A stretch of DNA of 64,000 bases, taken from contig NW_026889755.1 of assembly GCF_033153115.1 (NCBI RefSeq), positions 15,314,001-15,378,000 of the forward strand. Direction: 5' to 3'. Of the stretch, positions 2,464 to 55,323 are shown piece after piece (position 1 is the first letter of the stretch; each line of letters begins with the position of its first letter). The position numbers and the translations under genes were made by a program. The stretch comes from Saccostrea echinata (Eukaryota). The notes beneath the pieces were generated by a model that was not told the origin of the DNA, did no database searches, and saw only the letters and a program-made list of their open reading frames with translations.

Positions 2464-2902
2464 GTAAGTTACTGAGTACATTTTTTAAGTTCACCTTTTT
2501 TTAAATAAAAATAAAGTGATTAAAAGTAACACCCCAAACACGAAGAAAAATATTTTCCATTTTATACTAATTCCTCAACACATGGAATTGAAGAACCATG
2601 CCAAGAGCAGAAAAAAGTTCTTTATGATTTGATGATTTTAGGTTGTTCAAATTCATGGCCAGTGGGGGAGGGGGGGGGGGTCATATATTAGCAAAAATAT
2701 TAAGTTCTTAAAATAGCAAGACTGTTATTAGACATTATTCAGTCATATCTATGTTTAACATCTTCATGCACTGTATATTTCAATTTATATAGAGATTTCT
2801 TGAAATTTATTTCAAATAAGATATTTCAAAATATACAAATTAAATATGATTTGCTGATCTAGTATTTAATATCTTTAAATTTTTTTTTTTCAATTCTGTC
2901 AG

Positions 2903-4255
2903 GAAAATGCTGCAATTGTACTACAGAAAACTTGGAGAGCTTACAGCATAAAATGTTGGTACAAAAGGATACAGTCAAGCACTGTAATTCAAAGAGCATG
3001 GCGTGCACGAAAACTGAGGAAAGATTTTCTAGGGAAACAAAAAGCAGTAGTACTTCTACAACAGAAATATAGAGCCCATCAACTAGCCAGACGACGCAGA
3101 GCTGCATTTATTCAGATGAAATCATCATCCATTGTTATACAGCGGGCCTGGAAGAAGCACAGCAAACAAGCAAATCGAAGAAAACTATTAATTTAACTAC
3201 AGAAAACTTGGAGAGTTTAGAAAGGGAAATGTCGGTACAAAAGGATACAGTTAAGCTCTACTGTGATTCAAAGGCCATGGCGCACACGGAAACAGAGGAA
3301 GGATTATCTAAGGAAACAAAAAGCAGTAGTATTTCTTGAACAGAAATACAAAGCCAATCAACTGGCCAGAAGGCATAGAACCACATTTATTCAGATGAAA
3401 TCCTCCTCAATTGTTATGCAGCAGGCTTTAAAAAAGCAAATGGAAAAGCGCAATCAGGCAGCAATCATTCTTCAGTCGTACTGGAGATGTTTTAAGGCTA
3501 ATCAGCGAGATTACAATCAAAAGAGGCAAGCAATTTTAAAACTGCAGGCATTATTTCGCATGAAAATCCAGAGATATTTTTTTCTGGTCAAAGAGATGGC
3601 TGCCTGTAAAATTCAAAAGTGGTTCAGAAATGAATTACAAAGAGACAGGGTTAAAACAGAATACCAGAGAAAGAGACACTCAATAGTAGTTCTTCAAAGT
3701 GCTTCAAGAGGTTGGATGGCTAGAAAACAAGAAAATCAAAGAAAATTCCTAATTATCCGAATCCAGTCTGTGGCCAGAAAAATAATAAATGAGCGGAAGT
3801 TCCAGATTTGGAGGAAATATACTGTGCTTTGTCAAAGGCGCTATCGAGCTAAGTTGCATGGCAGATTGATCCGTCGTCAGTATTTGAACCTCATTGCAGC
3901 AGCTGTGACAATACAGTCATGTTACAGAGGACTTCAGACTAGAAGGCTGATGTTGCTGAAAGAGGAAAGTGCCAAGGGAATTTAGTCATGGTACAAAGGC
4001 AGAAAACAATACATATTGTACACAGAACTAAGGCAATCAATCCTTGTTTGTCAGAGAACTTACAGAGCTAGTAAGTTAGCACAGTCAGATCGAAGGAATT
4101 TCTTGGTCCTTAAAGGAGCAATTCTTTCTATACAGGCATTTTATAAAGGTTACAAGACAAGATGCATGTACCAAAGAATGGAGCAGGCCATAGTGCTGCT
4201 CCAGACTGGTTCTAGAGGTATGCTAAAGAGAAGAAGGATCAAAGGACTTGTCAAG
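2903..4255 (+). pseudogene. Large IQ-repeat exon, copy 1 (disabled)
   Basis: Acceptor ctgtcag|GAA, donor aag|gttaga. Frameshift near 3190, TAG at 3218-3220, CAG>TAG at 3983-3985. Contains ORFs 3263-3985 and 4016-4303. Confidence 0.8.
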
Positions 4256-4658
4256 GTTAGATCAAGTAAAAATATTAGGATTAATAATCAAAATGTCAAT
4301 TGAATAAAAAGCAACGTTAAAAGAAAAATGCTTTAATGAAATATGTAGACAAAAAGAAGAAATGTAATTTCTTAATTTTAATATGAATGAATCAAAATCA
4401 GGCTTGTTCAAATTGTGGTCTGGGGCCACAATAGGATGTTAATGTTTCTTATGGGAATATTAAGTAAATTCTTTGAAAAAATTAGCAAGGCAGTAATTAG
4501 TCATATTGATGTGCAAGCATCCTCAACTTTAACAGTACATTTAAATTTGTAGTCATAATAAGGCAGATATTCGAAACGGGTGCAAATTAAATTTAATTTA
4601 CTGATATATTCAGTAAAATATGTTTTAAATACTGAGTATATGTAATTATTTCTGTCAG

Positions 4659-5731
4659 GAAAAGGCTGCAATTGTACTACAGAAAACATGGAGAGCTTAC
4701 AAAGTGAAATGTTGGTACGAAAGGATACAGTCAAGCAACACTGTGATTCAAAGAGCATGGCGTGCACGAAAACTGAGGAAAGATTTTCTAAGGAAACGAA
4801 AAGCAGCAGTATCTCAACAACAAAAATACAAAGCTCATCAACTGGCCAGAAGGCATAAAACTACATTTATTCAGATGAAATCGTTAAATGAGAAACTGCA
4901 AGCTCGGGAGAAACAGATGGAAAAACACATTCAGGCAGCAGCCACTCTTCAGTCTTACTGGAGGTGTTTTAAGTCTGATCAGCGAGACTACAATCAAAAG
5001 AGGCAAGCAATTGTAAAACTGCAGGCATTCTTTCGCATGAAAATCCAAAGAGATATATTTTTGGTCAAAAAGATGGCTGTCTGTAAAATACAGAAGTTTT
5101 TCAGAAATAAAATACAAAGAGACAGGGTTAAAAGAGAATACCAGAGAAAGAGACGATCAGTAATAGTTCTACAAAGTGCTGCCAGAGGTTGGCTGGCTAG
5201 AAAACAAGCAAAACAAAGAAAAATCATAATTATCCAAACCCAGGCTGCGGCCAGAAGTCATTAACTGATCGCAAGTTTCACACTTTAAGGAAAGTGTCAG
5301 AATTTTGTAAAGAAATCCAGCAAGCCAAATTGCATGGAAGGTTGATTCATCAACAGTGTTTGGCCCTCCATAAAGCAGCTGTGATAATGCAGTCATGCTT
5401 TACAGGACAGCAGTCTAGTAGGTTGATGTTGCTTGAACAAGAAAGTGCCAGGAGAATTCAGTCATGATACAAAGGCAGAAAACAATACATATTGTACACA
5501 GAACTAAGGCAACCAGTCCTTGTTTGTCAGAAAACTTACAGATCTAGTAAGTTAGCACAGTCAGATCGAAGGAATTTCTTGGTCCTTAAAGGAGCTGTTC
5601 TTACTATACAGGCATTTTATAAAGGTTACAAGACAAGATGCATGTACCAAAGAATGGAGCAGGCCATAGTGTTGCTCCAGACTGGTTCTAGAAGTATGCT
5701 AGAGAGAAGAAGGATCAAAGGACTTGTCAAG
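4659..5731 (+). pseudogene. Large IQ-repeat exon, copy 2 (disabled)
   Basis: 1-nt deletion near 5256 (gccagaagtc versus gccagaaagtc in copy 3) and TGG>TGA at 5465-5467. Confidence 0.8.
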
Positions 5732-7079
5732 GTTAGATCAAGTAAAAATATTAGGATTGATAATCAAAATGTCAATTGAATAAAAGCAACATTCAAAGAA
5801 AAATGCTTTAATGAAATATGTAGACAAAAAGAAGAAATGTAATTTCTTAATTTTAATATGAATGAATCAAAATCAGGCTTGTTCAAATTGTGGTCTGGGG
5901 CCACAATAGGATGTTAATGTTTCTTATTGGAATATTAAGTTAAAATTCTATAAGAAAAAAAAAATAGCAAGGCAATAATTAGTCATATTGATGTGCAAGC
6001 ATCTTCAACTTTAACCGTACATTTAATTTTGTAGTCATAATAAGGCAGATTTTCGAAACGGGTGCAAATTAAGTTTAATTAGTGATATGTTCAGTAAAAT
6101 ATGTTTTAAATACTGAGTATACGTAATTATTTTTGTCAGTAAAATGCTGCAATTGTACTACAGAAAACATGGAGAACTTACAAAGTGAAATGTTGGTACA
6201 AAAGGATACAGTCAAGCAACACTGTGATTCAAAGAGCATGGCGTGCACGAAAACTGAGGAAAGATTTTCTAAGGAAACAAACAGAAGCAGTATCTCAACA
6301 ACAAAAATACAAAGCTCATCAACTGGCCAGAAGGCATAGATCCACATTTATTCAGATGATATCGTCAAATGAGAAACAGCAAGCTCGGGATAAACAGATG
6401 GAAAAACACATTCAGGCAGCAGCCACTCTTCAGTCTTACTGGAGGTGTTTTAAGTCTGATCAGCGAAACTACAATCAAAAGAGGCAAGCAATTGTAAAAC
6501 TGCAGGCATTCTTTCGCATGAAAATCCAGAGAGATTTATTTTTGGTCAAAAAGATGGCTGTCTGTAAAATACAGAAGTTTTTCAGAAATAAAATACAAAG
6601 AGACAGGGCTAAAAGAGAATACCAGAGAAAGAGACGATCAGTAATAGTTCTACAAAGTGCTGCCAGAGGTTGGCTGGCTAGAAAACAAGCAAAACAAAGA
6701 AAAATCATAATTATCCAAACCCAGGCTGCGGCCAGAAAGTCATTAACTGATCGCAAGTTTCACACTTTAAGGAAAGTGTCAGAATTTTGTAAAGAAATCC
6801 AGCAAGCCAAATTGCATGGAAGGTTGATCCATCAACAGTGTTTGGCCCTCCATAAAGCAGCTGTGATAATGCAGTCATGCTTTACAGGACAGCAGTCTAG
6901 AAGGTTGATGTTGCTTGAACAAGAAAGTGCCAGGAGAATTCAGTCATGGTACAAAGGCAGAAAACAATACATATTGTACACAGAACTAAGGCAATCAATC
7001 CTTGTTTGTCAGAGAACTTACAGAGCTAGTAAGTTAGCACAGTCAGATCGAAGGAATTTCTTGGTCCTTAAAGGAGCTG

Positions 7080-7874
7080 TATGCTGTCTGGAACAGCTAG
7101 CTAAACCTCACACCTCACACCTCATACTTGATCATTGAAGAACACATGGTAACTGGTTCCATATTTATTAACAAGCGAATTCATATTCCAATCAGTGAAT
7201 GAGCGAATGAGCCTAGGTGAGTGAGACAAAGTGAGCCTATGTGAGTGAGCCTAAGTGAGCGAGTGAGTCTACACGAGCGAGTAAGCGAATGAGCGAGTGA
7301 GCGAATGAGGTAAATAACTGAAATAAACAAAATCAAATACTATAATACTGATATACCAAAAAGACAATAACGGTGTTCCATAGAAATAGCTCACTTATAA
7401 ACCTTATCATAATAACAAATTACTATAAAGCATATTAGATAAATTGAATAACAATAACTAATTCTCGTGACTTCAGTGACTTTAAACTTTACAAAAAATA
7501 CCGGTCTGAATAAGTTTTCAATACACAAAAACTCTATAAATAATCACCAAAAAACTTTACAAATAATAGGTATGAAGTTACAAAAGTTTCCTATAAAAAC
7601 TTACATGGTAATAGGCCACAAATCGTAAGAAGGTAGAATGTTACATGTACATCCTCATGGATGGAACTCTAATGGCAGACTGAATGAAAACTTGCACGAG
7701 AAAATGAGGGAGATAACTCCTGACACAAAAGATTTCCACTCAAGGAAGATAATTCAAAAATTTACAAAGAAGGATAACTCTTTCTGATATCTGAATAATA
7801 CACATATTTCACTCCGTATAATTACACAAAAAAGCAAACAAAAATAAATAAAAAATAAGAACTGTGACAGCACA
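7080..7874 (-). repeat. 3' LTR of the BEL element
   Basis: Matches the 5' LTR except for one substitution seen by eye (ggtgagtgag versus ggtgattgag). AATAAA on the - strand near 7164-7169. Confidence 0.95.
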
Positions 7875-7916
7875 CTCCCCGTCTGATGTTTCTAACATCA
7901 CATATACAATTACAAG

Positions 7917-8444
7917 CTATACATCAATGTCATTGGATAGTAGCAGCACCATCTCTGTAACTGGACGAATGAATGTTGACGACTGGCAACCGCGTTTCGC
8001 GACACGAATTTCAGCTTTACGAACTTTCCCGTCATCACTGGGAAACACTTTCACAATGACACCCATAGGCCAAAGGTTACGATGAACATCTTTATCGCGA
8101 AGTAACACAATATCACCTTGTGTAATGTTTCTTTCACTACGCGTCCACTTGCGACGAATCTGTAAAGTATAAAGATACTCTTTTCTCCAGCGTGTCCAGA
8201 ATAAATCTGCCATATGCTGTACGCGTTTCCACTGAGCTTGATACATGTTCATCTTGTCAACAGGAAGGTCGACGATCACAGGAGTTTTCTGGGTAAGTAT
8301 CATGGAAGGGCTCAGAGGGTACGGTTCATCTGCATCTTCCGATAAGGGGACTAATGGTCTGGCATTTACGATTGCTGAAACTTCTGCCATAAATGTCGTC
8401 AGTGTTTCATGAGTTAGTGATCTAGCTGGTATCTCCTGCATCAA
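7917..8444 (-). CDS. Out-of-frame C-terminal part of BEL integrase (DUF5641-like)
   Basis: LTHETLTTFMAEVSAIVNARPL...FWTRWRKEYL...WPMGVIVKVFPSDDGKVR is the typical BEL integrase tail. Confidence 0.9.
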   Translation of the reverse strand: MMQEIPARSLTHETLTTFMAEVSAIVNARPLVPLSEDADEPYPLSPSMILTQKTPVIVDLPVDKMNMYQAQWKRVQHMADLFWTRWRKEYLYTLQIRRKWTRSERNITQGDIVLLRDKDVHRNLWPMGVIVKVFPSDDGKVRKAEIRVAKRGCQSSTFIRPVTEMVLLLSNDIDV

Positions 8445-11400
8445 TCACACGTCTTACTACTCCAATGAGGCGTTCCCATGCGCCACCCATATGCGAAGAG
8501 TGGGGTGGATTAAACTTCCAGGTAGTTCCACACTCATAAAGGAAGTTTTTGATTTTACCGTCTTCCAAGTTGAGTCCAGTTGAATCAATTTTCAGGTCAT
8601 TTATAGCACCCACGAAATTGGTTCCTTGATCTGAACGAATTTGGGTAACTTTTCCTCGAATGGCTTCAAACCGCTTAAAGGCATTGATAAATGATGAAGA
8701 GCTTAACTCCTCCACAACTTCAATGTGAATTCTTCTCGTTGTAAGGCAGGTAAATAAGATTGCCCATCTTTTCGAGTTTGCAGATCCTCCACGCGTCCGA
8801 CGAGTAACTATCTCCCATGGTCCAAACGTATCCAGGCCAATGTAAGTAAATGGTGGACTAGGCTCCAAACGATCGGTAGGAAGGTCCGACATTTTTTGAC
8901 ACAATAGCTTTCCACGTAATTTTCTGCATTTGACACAGTTGTGAAGTATGGATGAAACTAATTTTCTGGCTCCTATTATCCAGAATCCAGCACTACGAAT
9001 CGCTCCTGCTGTTAAGTGGCGACCTTGATGTTTACAGAGTTCATGATAGTAACGAACAATCAACAACGCTATATGATGGTTTCTGGGTATTATCACTGGA
9101 TTTTTCTCATTGATTGGTAAAGAACTTTTGTTGAGACGTCCTCCGACTCTCAGTATTCCATCTTTATCCAAGAATGGCGAAAGAGGTAAAATGTTACTAT
9201 CTCTAGGTAGAGGTTTTTCTTTCAATATGCACTGAATTTCTTCTAAATACACTTCATTCTGCACAATTTTGATGATAAGTTTCTCAGCTTTGTTGAAATT
9301 TTCCACAGTTCTTGAATCTTCACACACATGCCACCCAGAGCATTTACTGTCTCCTTGTTGAAAGGAATGTGCTATATGCTGAAGTCTGGCAATAGTTTCA
9401 ACAAGTTTCCTCCATTGCGAAAAACATGAGAATCTTTCTGATTTCAGTCCAAGTCTAGAGATGTCAACCTTTAGACAAGTGATTTCTTGTCTGACTTCCC
9501 TGTCTGAATCTGGGTCCACCATCTCATAAGATACGCATGGGTGCTGAATCTGTTGTAAGTGTGCAGGTGATGGTCCTAAGAGCCAAGTACTGTTTTGTAG
9601 AGCTTTAACTGGTATCTGTCTTGTTGCTTGATCAGCTGGATTTTTGTCTGTTGATATGTATGACCACTGATCTGGTTTGGTCACTTTACGAATTTGCATC
9701 ACTCTGTTTGCCACATACTGATAGAATCTCCTTGAATTGTTGAAAATATATCCCAACACTACTTTACTATCATAGTAAAACTTAAAATGTTCAATCGGTA
9801 ATTCTAGCTGTTCTGATACACACTTAGCAATTTCCACAGCTAGCACAGCGCCACAAAGTTCTAAACGTGGTATCGAATGTCCTTTTAAGGGCGCAAGTTT
9901 TGATTTGCCGAGGATAAATCCAAAGTTTCCTTGTGATTCTACATAGGCCACTGCTGATATTGCTGATTCTGAAGCATCACAAAAAATGTGAATTGTTTTG
10001 TTCATTGTCTCACTCCATGACTGAGTCAGTTCTATGTAAACTCTTGGGATGTGTAGATTTTGGAGATGTTGTAAGGAATTTTTCCATTTTTCCCACTGAG
10101 TAGACTGATTTTCTGGTAAAGGTTCATCCCAGTTGACCGTTTCTTGAAGTAGATTCCTCATAAGTGACTTGCCTTGGATGATAATTGGGGCGAGAAATCC
10201 TAGGGGGTCAAATATACTATTTATTGTTGATAACACACCTCTTCTTGTGAATGGTTTGACATCATTTGAAATTTTAAAGAAAAACGAATCTGACTGTAAG
10301 TCCCAATTAAGTCCTAGACTGCGCTGTGTTGGTAGATTGTCTTTTGATAAATCCAAGTCTTTCATTTCACTTGACAGATCACTAGGTGGAAAAGCGTTCA
10401 TAACTTCCTGGTTGTTTGAAGCTATTTTGTGTAGACGTAATTTCCCATAACTCAATGCTTTCTGTGTTCTTTTCATTAGGTCCACAGCTTTTTCTACGGT
10501 AGGTTGTGATGTTAATCCATCATCCACATAAAAATCACGTTCTACATACTGAGTTACATCTGTCCCAAACATATCTTCTACTTCCTTAACAGTCTTGCGT
10601 AATCCGTAGGTTGCGATGGCTGGCGAGGGACTGTTTCCAAAGACGTGAACAGTCATACGGTATTCGATCAGTCTCTTTTCAGGATTGTTGTCTTCATGCC
10701 ATAGAAATCGCAAGAAATTTCGATGAGGTTCACAGACTTTAAAACAATAAAACATCTGTTCAATATCTCCAATTAATGCGACTTTCTCTCTGCGGAACCG
10801 TAGTAAAACACCCAGAAGACTGTTTGTCAAGTCTGGTCCGGTAAGTAGTACGTCGTTAAGCGACTTTCCTTCGAATTTTGCTGAAGAATCAAACACAACT
10901 CGAATTTTGTTTGGTTTCTTTGGGTTGTAAACTCCAAACAATGGTAAGTACCAACACTCTTCTCCATTCTGTAGAGGCGGTGCTATTTCTGCATGATGAT
11001 TCTTGAACAATGCATCCATAAATTCCACAAAATGTTCTTTCTTTGTAGGATCCTTCTGCAAAGTGTAATCTAACTGTTTTGCTCTCTTCCTAGCTTGATC
11101 ATAGTTGTTTACTAGTCTTTGACGGTCCTTACGAAAAGGAAGTGGAGCTTGCCAATGTCCATCAAGATCTTTTGTAAATTCTGAATTCATGATGTCTAAG
11201 AACTCATGATCATCCATAGAAAGTCCTAACTTTTCATCATTCTCTGTCCTCTGAAAAACACTTTCACCAATTTCAGTTTTTGTACACATGATGTTTGTTG
11301 AGGTTTCATTGAGGATTTTTTCTTTGACCTGTAAGTTACTGTTGCAAGGTAGCATCAGAGTTGGACGGCCATCAGGTAGAACACAAGTTTTCATGACATT

Positions 11401-14085
11401 AATGACATCTGGTTTATGGGTTTTTCCCAAACAAGTCTCACCAATGATAGTCCAACCAAGGGACAGTTTTTGGGCATAGGGTTGATTTCCCAATCCAATG
11501 CGTTGGTCTAAAACGTGATGTGCTTTGGTTATGTCCCTTCCTATCAGTAACAAGATTTCTGCATTAGGATCAACTGGTGGTATGTGATCAGCAATGTCAT
11601 GCAAATGTTCATAATGTAGGGCTACATCTGGTGTAGGAATTTCCTCTCTGACTTCAGGAATTTCATCACACTCAATGATGGTAGGTATATCTATACAGTT
11701 TTGTCCATCTAATGACTCAACAACTAATCCATGAACTTTACGTCCTGACCTTTGAACTTTTCCTGAACAAGATGTTAACAGGTAATTTGTCATAGTTCCA
11801 TGAGTGTCCATAAGATCAAAGAGTTCTGGTTTAGCAAGTGTTCTGTTTGACTGGTCATCAATCACTGCATAAATTTTCACAGATTTTTGCGGACAGTGTT
11901 TTGGGTACACATGCACCAGAATGGTTTTAGCACAAGATTTTCCACCAAATGTTTGTCCACAGATTTGTGTACACTTAGAATTCACAGCTGGGTTGTTCAC
12001 ATTTTCAGAATCTAAAACTTGTCTCTCAGTGAAATTCTCCCCGCCATAGTTTCTCCAAGGGTATGAAGTCTGAACTTTTGTCCTGTTCACATGTAATGGT
12101 GATGTGTGAAATTTGCTTCCACATTCTCCACACTGCACATCAGAATGACACTCTGCTTGTTTATGATCTCTTGAACAACATCTATAACACAAATTGTTAT
12201 CTTTCAAGATCTTCCTCCGTTCGTCAAATGGCTTTGTTCTGAAAGCTCTGCACTGTTCCAAGGAATGGTTTGTCTTATGAAGGGGACACTGGTTTTCTTT
12301 TCCTGAGTTACGAAGAATCTGTGGTTGCCGAGACACAGCTGTTTTCCTGCTTGAAATCTTCAGAGTTTTGTCACTGTGTTTCTGCATATGCAAGTTTCTA
12401 TCTGTATAAGCAAAACTGGGATTGTTCTTGATACGGCTTTGCTCACGAATAAAGTTTGCAAATACATGAAATGGGGGAAACACAACATGATGTTCACTTA
12501 TGTATTTCACTGCTGTATTCGTCCATTTTTCTTGAAGTTGGTACGGAAGCTTCATGACGATAGGTGTCACTCCTGTCGACGCATCAAAATATGCAAGTAA
12601 TGACTGGTAACGAATATCTTCTTTTGCTGCTAGGATTTCATCCAAAATATCAGACAAGTCATATAGACGACGATAATCTTTCGATGTAATAGGAGCAAAT
12701 GAGTTCAGTTTTGTTTTTAAAGCAGATTCTATCATTTCAGGACAACCAAATCTCTCCTCTAATCTTTGCCAAATTCTCTGAAGTCCATGCACTGGATTGC
12801 TCGCACTTGCTGCTTTAATGCTGATAATCTGTTGTTGTGCTGATAGACTAGTGAATTTGATAAGAAAGTCAATTTCCTCTTCTGGTGTCACTTGTAAGTC
12901 TCTCATAACAGATTTAAAGGTTGCTTTCCATGACGGGTAGAATTCAGGTTTGTCATTAAATTTGATGAGACGTGAAAGCATCAAGTCTTTTTTCAAGAGA
13001 TAACGAGTGAAATCTGAAGTCACTGCTTGTCCTCCTACACTCCAGGACGGCTGTGGTGGAAAGTATGGAAGAGCCTGAGGATTCAGTATAGATGTACAAG
13101 GTTCTGGAATGCAACTCTGACTATGTTGATTAACATTTTCTTTCACAATAGTTTCAGGTTCTACACAAATGTTTTTATTTTGAGTTCTGATTTGAGCATG
13201 TTGCTCTACATATGATTTTGTACGTTCTTTACTGTCAACACTCTCTAAATGTTTAATACATGTATCACTATGACCACACTGACTTCCTTCCTCTTCACTG
13301 AGAATTTCCGCTTCAGCAACTGCGACTTCCTTTTTAACAGATAGTAATTGTAGATCTGCTTCTAAATCGTCTGTCATTTTCTGAGACTTAGCTCTTTCTA
13401 ATGCTAGAAGAGATTGTTCCTTCTTAATTTTCATTTCAAGTTCGGTATATTTTAATTTGGCACGGGCAATTTCTGCTTTCTTTCTCTTTTCAGACAATGA
13501 GCTTTGTTTACTGCTGATTGAAGAAGTTTGTGAGGCATTTTCTTGTGATCTCTTAGTTGACCTATTTGAATGAACATCTTCTTCCTGAGGTGGTTTCTGT
13601 TCATGAAGCTGTGGTGACTGTTGGTACAATGCATTCAGTTTTCTGAAAGCAGTATCAAATAAGATAGAATATCCTTTCTTTGAAAACTTGAGTTTTTGAA
13701 GTTCATGTACACATTTTTCAGTTCGATGTCTTTCCAGAAAACCACAGAATTCACTGAAGAGTACGTCGAATGCATCTATTCTTGTTTCTAATTGTGATTT
13801 CAAATGTATGATGAGTTCTGGATTTTTAGAAGATGTGTGGTCTACTTCCTCGATGATAGTGTCTACATTTTTCCATAACTTTTGTAAACGAGCTGAGTAA
13901 GTGTTAATCTGTTTGTCTAGGAGTTCTTGACCTTTCTCAGTTAGATCCCTGTGACGTTTCGGCCTGGCAGAGGCCTGGTTTTTGTCATCTTCTTCTTGAT
14001 CAACCATCTGGTGTTCGTCATCTTCTTCTTCTTGATGATGATCACTCATCCTCAAATTCTGGGTTTGGTTCTGGCCAATTGACAT
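8422..14085 (-). CDS. BEL/Pao Gag-Pol polyprotein (1887 aa), truncated by a frameshift in integrase
   Basis: Three BEL-type Cys/His knuckles (CPLHKTNHSLEQC, CYRCCSRDHKQAEC, CGECGSKFHTSPLH); protease AVIDDQSNRT; RT FYVDD; RNase H FCDASE and IPRLELCGA; integrase HHCC and the D-D-E triad (LDTFG, SDQGTNF, WERLIG). Confidence 0.95.
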   Translation of the reverse strand: MSIGQNQTQNLRMSDHHQEEEDDEHQMVDQEEDDKNQASARPKRHRDLTEKGQELLDKQINTYSARLQKLWKNVDTIIEEVDHTSSKNPELIIHLKSQLETRIDAFDVLFSEFCGFLERHRTEKCVHELQKLKFSKKGYSILFDTAFRKLNALYQQSPQLHEQKPPQEEDVHSNRSTKRSQENASQTSSISSKQSSLSEKRKKAEIARAKLKYTELEMKIKKEQSLLALERAKSQKMTDDLEADLQLLSVKKEVAVAEAEILSEEEGSQCGHSDTCIKHLESVDSKERTKSYVEQHAQIRTQNKNICVEPETIVKENVNQHSQSCIPEPCTSILNPQALPYFPPQPSWSVGGQAVTSDFTRYLLKKDLMLSRLIKFNDKPEFYPSWKATFKSVMRDLQVTPEEEIDFLIKFTSLSAQQQIISIKAASASNPVHGLQRIWQRLEERFGCPEMIESALKTKLNSFAPITSKDYRRLYDLSDILDEILAAKEDIRYQSLLAYFDASTGVTPIVMKLPYQLQEKWTNTAVKYISEHHVVFPPFHVFANFIREQSRIKNNPSFAYTDRNLHMQKHSDKTLKISSRKTAVSRQPQILRNSGKENQCPLHKTNHSLEQCRAFRTKPFDERRKILKDNNLCYRCCSRDHKQAECHSDVQCGECGSKFHTSPLHVNRTKVQTSYPWRNYGGENFTERQVLDSENVNNPAVNSKCTQICGQTFGGKSCAKTILVHVYPKHCPQKSVKIYAVIDDQSNRTLAKPELFDLMDTHGTMTNYLLTSCSGKVQRSGRKVHGLVVESLDGQNCIDIPTIIECDEIPEVREEIPTPDVALHYEHLHDIADHIPPVDPNAEILLLIGRDITKAHHVLDQRIGLGNQPYAQKLSLGWTIIGETCLGKTHKPDVINVMKTCVLPDGRPTLMLPCNSNLQVKEKILNETSTNIMCTKTEIGESVFQRTENDEKLGLSMDDHEFLDIMNSEFTKDLDGHWQAPLPFRKDRQRLVNNYDQARKRAKQLDYTLQKDPTKKEHFVEFMDALFKNHHAEIAPPLQNGEECWYLPLFGVYNPKKPNKIRVVFDSSAKFEGKSLNDVLLTGPDLTNSLLGVLLRFRREKVALIGDIEQMFYCFKVCEPHRNFLRFLWHEDNNPEKRLIEYRMTVHVFGNSPSPAIATYGLRKTVKEVEDMFGTDVTQYVERDFYVDDGLTSQPTVEKAVDLMKRTQKALSYGKLRLHKIASNNQEVMNAFPPSDLSSEMKDLDLSKDNLPTQRSLGLNWDLQSDSFFFKISNDVKPFTRRGVLSTINSIFDPLGFLAPIIIQGKSLMRNLLQETVNWDEPLPENQSTQWEKWKNSLQHLQNLHIPRVYIELTQSWSETMNKTIHIFCDASESAISAVAYVESQGNFGFILGKSKLAPLKGHSIPRLELCGAVLAVEIAKCVSEQLELPIEHFKFYYDSKVVLGYIFNNSRRFYQYVANRVMQIRKVTKPDQWSYISTDKNPADQATRQIPVKALQNSTWLLGPSPAHLQQIQHPCVSYEMVDPDSDREVRQEITCLKVDISRLGLKSERFSCFSQWRKLVETIARLQHIAHSFQQGDSKCSGWHVCEDSRTVENFNKAEKLIIKIVQNEVYLEEIQCILKEKPLPRDSNILPLSPFLDKDGILRVGGRLNKSSLPINEKNPVIIPRNHHIALLIVRYYHELCKHQGRHLTAGAIRSAGFWIIGARKLVSSILHNCVKCRKLRGKLLCQKMSDLPTDRLEPSPPFTYIGLDTFGPWEIVTRRTRGGSANSKRWAILFTCLTTRRIHIEVVEELSSSSFINAFKRFEAIRGKVTQIRSDQGTNFVGAINDLKIDSTGLNLEDGKIKNFLYECGTTWKFNPPHSSHMGGAWERLIGVVRRVIDAGDTS

Positions 14086-14093
14086 TTATTTAC

Positions 14094-14888
14094 TATGCTG
14101 TCTGGAACAGCTAGCTAAACCTCACACCTCACACCTCATACTTGATCATTGAAGAACACATGGTAACTGGTTCCATATTTATTAACAAGCGAATTCATAT
14201 TCCAATCAGTGAATGAGCGAATGAGCCTAGGTGATTGAGACAAAGTGAGCCTATGTGAGTGAGCCTAAGTGAGCGAGTGAGTCTACACGAGCGAGTAAGC
14301 GAATGAGCGAGTGAGCGAATGAGGTAAATAACTGAAATAAACAAAATCAAATACTATAATACTGATATACCAAAAAGACAATAACGGTGTTCCATAGAAA
14401 TAGCTCACTTATAAACCTTATCATAATAACAAATTACTATAAAGCATATTAGATAAATTGAATAACAATAACTAATTCTCGTGACTTCAGTGACTTTAAA
14501 CTTTACAAAAAATACCGGTCTGAATAAGTTTTCAATACACAAAAACTCTATAAATAATCACCAAAAAACTTTACAAATAATAGGTATGAAGTTACAAAAG
14601 TTTCCTATAAAAACTTACATGGTAATAGGCCACAAATCGTAAGAAGGTAGAATGTTACATGTACATCCTCATGGATGGAACTCTAATGGCAGACTGAATG
14701 AAAACTTGCACGAGAAAATGAGGGAGATAACTCCTGACACAAAAGATTTCCACTCAAGGAAGATAATTCAAAAATTTACAAAGAAGGATAACTCTTTCTG
14801 ATATCTGAATAATACACATATTTCACTCCGTATAATTACACAAAAAAGCAAACAAAAATAAATAAAAAATAAGAACTGTGACAGCACA
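14094..14888 (-). repeat. 5' LTR of the BEL element
   Basis: Direct repeat of 7080-7874; ends TGTGCTGTC...GACAGCATA on the - strand. Confidence 0.95.
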
Positions 14889-15279
14889 AGCTGTTCTTAC
14901 TATACAGGCATTTTATAAAGGTTACAAGACAAGATGCATGTACCAAAGAATGGAGCAGGCCATAGTGTTGCTCCAGGCTAGTTTTAGAGGTTTTCTAGAT
15001 AGAAAAAGGATGAAAGAACTTCATGAAGCTGCGGCCTTTATACAGCAGGCTTTTAGAAACCACTGGAACATCAAACTTTTCAAGGTTAGATCAAGTAAAA
15101 AATATTTTCTTTGTCAATCATCAAAATGAATAAAATTAAGGTAATGGTTTAAAGAAAATTGCTTTAGTAAAATACATAGTCATTTGTTAATTTGCTTAGA
15201 TGATTAAAATTGGGTTGCTTTTATAAGAATTAGTTTTTCAAAACAATGAATCAACTAATTGGTTGGTACAAGATGTAAT

Positions 15280-53193: not shown

Positions 53194-54328
53194 CCTTAAG
53201 CTGATGACTCAGCATATCTTAAATTTATTCAAAATATGCAGCAGGCAATTATAAAATGAATCTCATTATTTATAACAAAGTAATTATTGCTGTTAATTGA
53301 TACGTTCAAACAACAGCCTGAATGGAAATGTTCGAAATATTCATGAAATGACCATTAAAAAAATCACCCATAATTGTCTTCAAGAGAAAAATGTGCATCA
53401 TTAATATTAAAACATGTCGTAAAATCTTCTTACACGAAAATTCTGTAACAAAGCGTATTCAACTGTTATATCAATTTTCTTTTTACTGTGTTCTTTGTTT
53501 GAGGGGCATCGATGATCTCTTTATGAAATGTTTTACTCTGTTGAACTTCTACAAAAACTTCTTTCAATGCACTTCCATGGAAATTCGATACATTGGACTG
53601 CAATGAACGAGACCAAGGGAATCAATTATGGCAGTCTTTCTTTTGTATTTTTATTTAAAGATAACTTCAATTTTACGTTTCCAATATGAAGTCATTCAAA
53701 CCTCAAACATAACAATTGTATTTCTCTAAAAATCTCTGTGTTTAAAAAACATAATTTCCACTGCAATGAGTATTTTTTTTTATTAAAACCACTAGGGTTA
53801 GGCTCTTTGTTGGCTATAATGGGAATGCTAAAAAAAGAAAAAAAAAACATGTGTAGGGTCATCCTGTTTAAGATATCCAGAACACTTCTGTTAATAAAAC
53901 CATGCTGCGAGGTTGGGGTCTTAAATCTGGTGCATATATTTGAAAATTGAAGAGTTTTTTGGATTTTGCCAGTGTTGGTTTTCCACAGAAGAGGGTAGAC
54001 CCCTCACATCAAACAAGTAAGGTGAAACCTCGAACCATTACTTTGTAACTCCTGACACAACGCAAACAAAACTTCGATGGCAACGGATTTCGTGCTGAGG
54101 AATTACGGACACGATAGGAACATGTGTTTTAGGAATTTTGTTTATCTTTGTCTAGCGTCTAATTTGTAAAACTTGAGATTGAAAATGTGTATGTTGTTTC
54201 ATTTCATTGAAACTTAAGGTACCGAGTGGATATAATATACTTCTAGACCTAGTTTTTTCGATTACAAATGATATGATTTATAATGTTTTTCTCCTTTTTA
54301 TTTTATGTTTATTTTTTTTTCTCCACAG

Positions 54329-55323
54329 GAAGCAGTATTTCTTCCATCGGGTCAATGAGATCGGAAGGGGAAAACATAAGTTTGTCTGGAAATTCCGACA
54401 TTGATTCCATTATGCTGAGCGACCCCTATCGGCTAACTGTGCATTTTTTAGCGGATTCTCACGAAGTTTATCCTATGATGGACATGTATCAGCCCGTAAT
54501 TGACTGGGTGGATCCAGACCTTCATATTTTCAAGGTCTCGGAGCGGATCAATGTTTCTGAACATAGACAGAAAAACTTCCCTGATTCGGATGCCAGCCTC
54601 CCCAGTACCGCCGTTATGATATTCTTACAGGAGGAAGGCATGTTAGGATGTGAAAGAATTCAAACTGCCAAAATTCATTTTGAAAAATCTCCATGGAAAT
54701 TTCACCATTCGGAGCAAGTGTCCCGAGGCCGGGTTAATCCGTATCCATATAACAGTCAGGACTTCTTTTATACCTCAGAAGATCTTCCGCTTTGGGCTGT
54801 TCGGCAGGTGCATTATGGGAAAGAGCATATTCGAATAGTAATATTCGCTAGTGAAGAAAACTGGGACGACATGGTACATTTCTACAAACTTATCATAGGA
54901 GCGGATCCAGAATTGTTACGGGAAGACTTCTGTTTATTTACGGTGCATACTCATACACATTACGACGTTCAATTTGCATTAAAAAGACTCCAAAAGGAGA
55001 CAAAACCTCGACCTCTAGAATGTGTAAAATTACAATTTCGTGTAACGGACGTCGGCCATATTGTGCCACTTTTCCCAAATGTTTGTAAACCTTTATCAGA
55101 CACTCGATGGGAAACCATGGACCATGATGGAAACATCATTGTTTTAGAAGTAACAGGCTGCGTCTTGCCATCAGCAAACAAACCAATAGAGAACAATGTT
55201 ACCCGTAAGAGATCAGACCGGTCCGATACCTCCGATAGGTCACGTGGTTCCAGTCGGTCGTCTTCGGAAACCACATCGAGTCAGTCTGGGAAAACGATAG
55301 AAATGTCAGGGTTTTATGTTTGA
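54329..55323 (+). CDS. FAM124: FAM124-family protein, main and terminal coding exon
   Basis: Motifs DPYRLTVH, PWKFHHSE, NSQDFF, PLWAVRQVHYGKE, LQFRV, LFPNVCKPLSDTRWETMDHDGN match FAM124A/B as recalled; acceptor ctccacag. Confidence 0.9.

Follow-up and report, generated by a model that had tools for sequence, protein, structure and literature searches.

A BEL/Pao retrotransposon of Saccostrea echinata that likely primes reverse transcription with its own RNA, assembled by splicing of a long terminal repeat intron

We analysed a 64,000-nucleotide (nt) stretch of the Saccostrea echinata genome (RefSeq assembly GCF_033153115.1, contig NW_026889755.1, forward-strand positions 15,314,001 to 15,378,000), called the window throughout. 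It contains a young BEL/Pao retrotransposon of ~7.8 kb on the minus strand (14888-7080). This element likely primes its own reverse transcription, in a manner resembling Tf1, with a piece of its RNA that host splicing would assemble by removing an intron from the long terminal repeat (LTR). The 8 nt that follow the acceptor of this intron and the 3 nt that precede its donor together form a perfect complement to the first 11 nt beyond the 5' LTR. Coordinates of the features are collected in Table 1.

The assignment to BEL/Pao is based on an LTR pair (795 nt, 1 mismatch between them, TG...TA ends), a 5-bp target duplication (CAGCT), a polypurine tract and a Pao-type polyprotein with a C-terminal DUF5641, all of which are present. 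Pfam placed the Pao peptidase A17 (PF05380) in the 1887-aa frame and DUF5641 in a second frame; it found no chromodomain in the element, so the polyprotein trait of Ty3/gypsy chromoviruses is missing. The gag-pol frame of the window copy is broken near 8435, in the integrase region, and some members of its family have an open frame of 2058 aa. The host genome holds at least 45 matches to the LTR.

The initial annotation of this DNA had noticed that no TGG-type transfer RNA (tRNA) site follows the 5' LTR, and we agree. The sequence there is GTAAATAAATG, which begins GTAAAT and does not correspond to the 18-nt tRNA-Arg or tRNA-Gly site, and the first ATG of the long frame comes after a leader of only 8 nt. 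Its description of the LTR also holds: CAGTTATTTAC at 14334-14324 pairs with the primer site at 10 of 11 positions, 8 of them contiguous, with TATTATAG ~28 nt upstream (beginning at 14361) and AATAAA downstream (at 14183). The accompanying caution about so short a duplex was well placed. Among 3000 dinucleotide shuffles of the LTR, 231 held an 8-nt complement and 52 a 10-of-11 match. On sequence grounds, then, the match in the window LTR is weak when taken alone; it is strong across families.

The families were drawn from a PF05380 search of the genome, which gave 150 scored places; 120 were fetched by longest open frame, 20 were added later and 9 were left out. A direct repeat was present in 105 of 121 loci (the window included), and in 78 the ends were clean and flanked by a 5-6 bp duplication. 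Grouping these 78 at 80% DNA identity produced 30 families, namely 25 with a GT leader (GT families), 3 with an N-C/T-ATTGA leader and 2 with TGG. L099 and L082 were added by hand, for a set of 29 non-tRNA and 3 tRNA-type families. The reverse transcriptase stretches of the other families are only 33-67% identical to that of the window element. At locus L019 this stretch is identical to a protein assigned to Saccostrea echinata. The swapped-pair statistics given below ignore kinship among families, and their counts are not independent trials.

In all 25 GT families, a pyrimidine-rich tract and YAG are followed immediately by 7-8 nt that are perfectly complementary to the leader. There are 19 spellings of this acceptor half, and 5% of 600 swapped leader/LTR pairs have such a match. 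In each of the 25, pairing begins exactly at the end of the LTR, and AATAAA or ATTAAA lies 7-140 nt 3' of the exon-2 half. Within one family, L081 and L024 differ by one base that is changed in both the exon-2 half and the primer site. This complementarity across families supports the probable self-priming suggested by the initial annotation. Of the covariation that it proposed to test in related BEL families, the matched complement was found in all 25 GT families, and the initiator-like segment proved not to be shared.

A blind best-match scan for the exon-1 half, with no GT requirement, was noisy, the GT donor ranking first in 15 of 49 acceptor-half copies. Therefore, we used a donor rule that is independent of the primer site. 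For the test on the 25 GT families, the donor was selected by splice-site score alone, blind to the primer site. Pairing continued for at least 3 nt beyond the junction in 23 of the 25 families, whereas 600 swapped pairs showed this in 6.7% of cases. The best of 200,000 permutations reached 12 families, and none reached 23. The tie rule for donor choice was set after the donor listing had been seen, and an alternative tie rule likewise gave 23 of 25.

In a second test, a single rule was applied over all donors and acceptors, and contiguous pairs across the junction were counted. At least 10 contiguous nt paired in 28 of the 29 non-tRNA families (27 at 11 or more), in 4 of 812 swapped pairs and in none of the 3 tRNA-type families. 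The sole miss, L053, failed the pyrimidine filter, yet it shows 7+4 pairing under the donor-score approach. Junction duplexes are 10-18 nt long with the 3' end pointing at the last base of the LTR, and the introns measure 89-539 nt. The best unspliced match to the primer site is only 6-9 nt in non-tRNA families; the window element has 8 contiguous nt in DNA and reaches 11 only across the junction. At the window donor (GTAAGT at 14618), the duplex between the exon end and the rest of the leader has a value of -11.4 kcal/mol, compared with -1.6 to -5.7 for five other donor-like sites. Junction pairing also occurs at loci outside the set on which the rule was made (L255, 14 nt; L040/L128, 11 nt; L257, 13 nt). 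L250, L096 and L127 showed none under the fixed rule; the LTR bounds of L096 and L127 are guessed, and L250 fits only with the donor of its 3' LTR.

Natural copies without the intron exist. L024, L058 and L068 lack the exact GT-AG stretch in both LTRs, and L085 is intron-less in both as well, exactly so in the 3' LTR, with two bases substituted at the junction in the 5' LTR. Among 141 loci surveyed, 175 LTRs carried the intron and 8 did not, the latter belonging to four elements in four families. No element was mixed, and this like status of the two LTRs fits a single 3' template. Of the 11 insertions in the L034 family that align well, 4 have no intron. The indels that these 4 have in common with intron-bearing copies are not the same ones, an indication of three or more separate losses and not of one spreading lineage. 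Two other families that were searched contained a single intron-less element each. As judged from these genomic copies, the LTR intron is real and is exactly removed in RNA that is later reverse transcribed.

Contigs from three sequencing runs of two studies, runs guessed to be RNA, exit the LTR at 14619 or 14617 into other sequence. The LTR donor is probably used in these contigs, with a long upstream exon. The joint from 14619 to 14331 was not seen in contigs of four runs guessed to be RNA; contigs can drop joints, so this result is neutral. We also observed that the donor at 14619/14617 is joined to at least four different outside sequences (runs X1, X2 and X4), possibly as LTR-host chimeric transcripts. 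Separately, a contig of run X3 joins the LTR end region to 9141 via 16 letters, with 4968 nt skipped (window 9141-14110); it may represent an internally deleted derivative in another organism.

L054 may preserve a fossil of primer copying. Its LTRs bear the intron, and its primer site consists of the usual 8 nt followed by a 60-nt inverted copy (98%), 68 nt in total. The inverted copy starts exactly at the donor and runs upstream, and ~0.8 kb of the gag region is missing. Fold-back on L054's own DNA would have copied the intron, which argues that the template was spliced. The simplest reading is that plus-strand synthesis likely copied an over-long spliced primer; fold-back on a co-packaged intron-less complementary DNA is the alternative. 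No further case of this kind was found among loci with a repeat pair, the two other hits being simple repeats.

We propose that the host spliceosome removes the LTR intron and so would join the exon-1 and exon-2 halves of the primer. By analogy with Tf1, RNase H would cut the RNA just after the 7-8 exon-2 bases, and the freed 3' end would prime minus-strand DNA at the site adjoining the 5' LTR. The short minus-strand DNA would transfer to the 3' LTR copy via the short repeat before the polyadenylation site. This 3' copy would usually be unspliced, in which case both new LTRs inherit the intron, and a spliced 3' copy would yield intron-less LTRs. During plus-strand synthesis the primer sequence would be returned to the primer site, so primer and site would stay matched as families diverge. 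The priming, the RNA cut and the RNA start are all steps that we infer.

A more specific form of this proposal, to which we give slightly less than an even chance, has the RNA starting 3-6 nt before the donor. A capped micro-exon would then contribute to a primer of 11-14 nt, and the intron would hide the primer in the 3' repeat. In 22-23 of the 25 families an A stands at -5 from the donor, where it brings no additional pairing, and the excess of pairing stops near -6; both fit a micro-exon. No TATA or YY1-like promoter word upstream of the donor is common to the 25 families.

Several observations weigh against the proposal or its micro-exon form. The L054 template reaches at least 60 nt upstream of the donor, and as much as 221 nt of upstream LTR is present in the contigs that exit at the donor. 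By this evidence some spliced RNAs have a long exon 1, contrary to a strict micro-exon. The 4 of 11 intron-less insertions in the L034 family imply that the 3' copy is often spliced there. L168, an element from a metagenome, has a donor half and no clean acceptor half. A Tf1-like leader stem gave no signal when each leader was compared with its own LTR tail, the duplex being no better than with swapped leaders (mean rank 13.6 of 25); a terminal hairpin has a z below -1.5 in 5 of 25 families. The shared ancestry of the families makes the swap tests overstate independence, and the host tRNA control is partial (63 of 92,585 candidates were scored, yielding 38 tRNA-like genes).

A variant that keeps the splice-made primer would give it a long exon 1, or derive it from the spliced 3' LTR of co-packaged RNA, and have it trimmed or only partly copied. 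We regard this as possible but doubtful; it takes a minor share of the confidence that we place in self-priming by a spliced RNA. The variant accommodates the L054 template, the contigs with long upstream sequence and a 3' copy spliced often enough to yield intron-less elements. However, the end of the pairing excess near -6 argues against it, and nothing evident would halt plus-strand copying on a long unmodified primer. L054, in which copying continued, is missing ~0.8 kb of gag region and so looks like a failed case. It is unlikely that the splice-made duplex is instead structural or regulatory, for example in masking the start codon or aiding packaging, while some other RNA primes. Such a role would suit the window family, in which the first ATG lies inside the duplex, and priming by the spliced RNA is here a proposed step. 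Nevertheless, the long-frame ATG is 17-54 nt from the LTR in 17 of 25 families, which puts it outside the 11-14 nt duplex in most; the exact start of pairing at the LTR end in every GT family and the spliced form copied into DNA at the L054 primer site also speak against it.

We see very little room for priming by a host tRNA half or fragment. Half-tRNA priming does exist in copia lineages, according to the accessible part of PMC6317226, and the host tRNA set is only partly covered. Against this, the site has no TGG, and the 19 different spellings of 7-8 nt each match their own LTR. The search for tRNA complementarity advised by the initial annotation gave, for this partial set of 38 tRNA-like genes, longest matches of 4-9 nt, the longer ones mostly within one 818-nt intron-type prediction. 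Least probable of all is what that annotation had favoured, an RNA start at 14333 with the unspliced 10-11 nt 5' end as primer. The 10 of 11 pairs and the TATTATAG word 28 nt upstream would suit it. However, of the 25 families only 4 have TCAGTT and only 3 have a TATA-like word at 18-38 nt upstream, compared with YAG before the complement in 25 of 25. Pairing halts at this AG and resumes at the distant donor, the remaining primer bases would come from before that donor, 287 nt upstream, and the deletion in intron-less copies ends at the same AG. We rejected the TCAG at 14333 as an initiator; it is the 3' splice site, and natural copies lack the intron exactly up to its AG. The annotation's own caveat, that this segment could be a splice acceptor, was correct, with the acceptor being part of the mechanism and not an alternative to it.

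Self-priming by a spliced RNA may extend beyond the GT families. In a separate clade (support 98 in a quick tree, in which the tRNA-type rows carry long-branch warnings), 5 exon-2 nt and 6-10 exon-1 nt pair after a 2-nt spacer in 4 of 4 families. Among near-identical copies in this clade (families L031, L032, L093, L098 and L109), the first spacer base is G, A or T and the rest of the site is fixed. We also collected 84 loci from metagenomes and metagenome-assembled genomes (MAGs), where a repeat was present in 33 and both LTR ends in 10. The acceptor half occurs in 9 of these 10 elements (two of the 9 being one family), each with a donor that adds 3-6 pairs; this donor is top-ranked in 7 of the 9. 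A motif scan of partial metagenome contigs gave 15 further acceptor halves, a scan that is circular and has no control. A search of viral contigs returned nothing. Whole BEL/Pao elements (L241-L244) were present in contigs of genomes titled Sedimenticola and Endozoicomonas, most likely as animal host DNA binned into bacterial MAGs.

The 25 GT families all fall in a 44-row clade (support 99) that includes proteins from shrimp, tick, fish, frogs, a priapulid and molluscs. It is conceivable, though we would put it just short of an even bet, that BEL/Pao elements of one wide lineage, with hosts among molluscs, crustaceans, ticks, fish and frogs, prime via a capped micro-exon of 3-6 nt plus 5-8 nt of exon 2.

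Self-priming has been described for the Tf1/sushi group and predicted for Tcn1 and TAR, according to the accessible text of PMC6317226, PMC10085805, PMC4600332 and PMC7175516. In Tf1, the first 11 bases pair with the primer site and are cut off by RNase H (PMC7175516, in part). As in Tf1, Tf2, Tj1 and their group, the window element has no tRNA site, ~11 nt of its own LTR RNA pair next to the 5' LTR, and a freeing cut is needed (PMC7175516, PMC10085805 and PMC4600332, in their accessible parts). However, the Tf1 primer is contiguous, whereas the BEL primer is split in DNA by a GT-AG intron of 89-539 nt; the window element is BEL/Pao and not gypsy, and the 'pretzel' leader stem was undetected. 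The element thus resembles Tf1 in its working but stands outside the Tf1/sushi group, and splicing appears to assemble its primer. For the plant elements TAR (Houba and Osr-1, copia) and Tcn1, self-priming was likewise predicted from LTR-to-site complementarity. The screen that detected those elements asked for 10 bp or more of contiguous match, according to the available part of PMC6317226; it would miss the BEL elements described here, as their unspliced match is only 6-9 nt.

The ICTV profile of Belpaoviridae gives tRNA priming at an 18-nt site for tRNA-Arg or tRNA-Gly (PMC8742986). The window element resembles that family in its LTRs, its gag-pol with Pao peptidase A17 and DUF5641, its polypurine tract, its length of 7.8 kb and its animal host. 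It departs from the profile in its primer site, the TGG site being missing in 29 of the 32 families examined here. As for lineage, Sailor (Sinbad, Sparrow and Surcouf) is the dominant mollusc BEL/Pao lineage and has zebrafish members, according to the accessible part of PMC6238403; the GT clade resembles it in holding mollusc and fish proteins. A word search of the accessible text of PMC6238403, PMC3118150 and PMC554778 turned up nothing on the primer site of Sailor/BEL elements, and PMC6934838 and PMC3601003, in the parts available, mention self-priming for other elements only. We found no report of BEL/Pao self-priming or of an LTR intron in the literature covered, which leaves most subscription papers, Repbase and GyDB outside.

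Known primers of LTR elements are tRNAs, half tRNAs and, in Tf1, the unspliced RNA 5' end, so a splice-made primer would be a new route. It would also make replication in a large lineage of animal transposons dependent on host splicing, giving the host a new point of control at the spliceosome. If the model is true, the intron makes two identical LTR repeats unequal in RNA, with the primer active at the 5' end and hidden at the 3' end. For most families of this genome (29 of 32) the ICTV statement of tRNA priming in BEL/Pao would be corrected, and the primer sites found missing from such elements in annotation screens would be explained. An independent origin of self-priming outside gypsy and copia is suggested. 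The predictions are exact to the base.

Table 1. Features of the BEL/Pao element in window coordinates
Feature	Position	Strand	Basis
5' LTR, 795 nt, TG...TA	14094..14888	-	repeat comparison
3' LTR, 1 mismatch compared with the 5' LTR	7080..7874	-	repeat comparison
Target site duplication CAGCT	14889..14893, other copy 7075-7079	-	repeat comparison
Exon 1 end, of which the final 3 nt (CAT) pair with positions 9-11 of the primer site; candidate RNA start at the A of 14623, -5 from the donor	14619..14624	-	
287-nt GT-AG intron in the 5' LTR (GTAAGT ... TTTCAG)	14332..14618	-	
Exon 2 start, 8 nt (TTATTTAC) that pair with positions 1-8 of the primer site; the 3' end of the primer is predicted at 14324	14324..14331	-	
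AATAAA, predicted polyadenylation signal	14178..14183	-	
Primer-binding position GTAAATAAATG, of a non-tRNA type and ending in the ATG that opens the long frame	14083..14093	-	
gag-pol frame, 1887 aa	8422..14085	-	open reading frame and Pfam
C-terminal piece with DUF5641, in a different frame from gag-pol	7917..8444	-	
Polypurine tract GGGGAG	7875..7880	-	
Intron copy in the 3' LTR, from which both new LTRs are predicted to receive their intron	7318..7604	-	

Several smaller observations concern the LTRs and the surroundings of the element. LTR ends of TA rather than CA, with clean 5-bp duplications, occur in the window (14094) and in families L011, L030, L034, L060 and L111, and both endings are found within families L060 and L039. 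The LTR tail of the window family (14323-14210) is extended by short GCTCAC-type tandem repeats to 214-230 nt, compared with 32-175 nt elsewhere. BEL families with TGG-type tRNA sites in the same genome (L042, L048, L082 and L264) have short LTRs of 140-391 nt and no junction match. The window element is inserted antisense in a 1.48-kb tandem unit that codes for IQ calmodulin-binding motifs (window 2894-7138 and 14889-15021). The insertion has probably disrupted a host exon, as a plus-strand frame at 6143-7138 continues into the 3' LTR. Elsewhere in the window, an open frame at 54277-55323 encodes a FAM124 domain.

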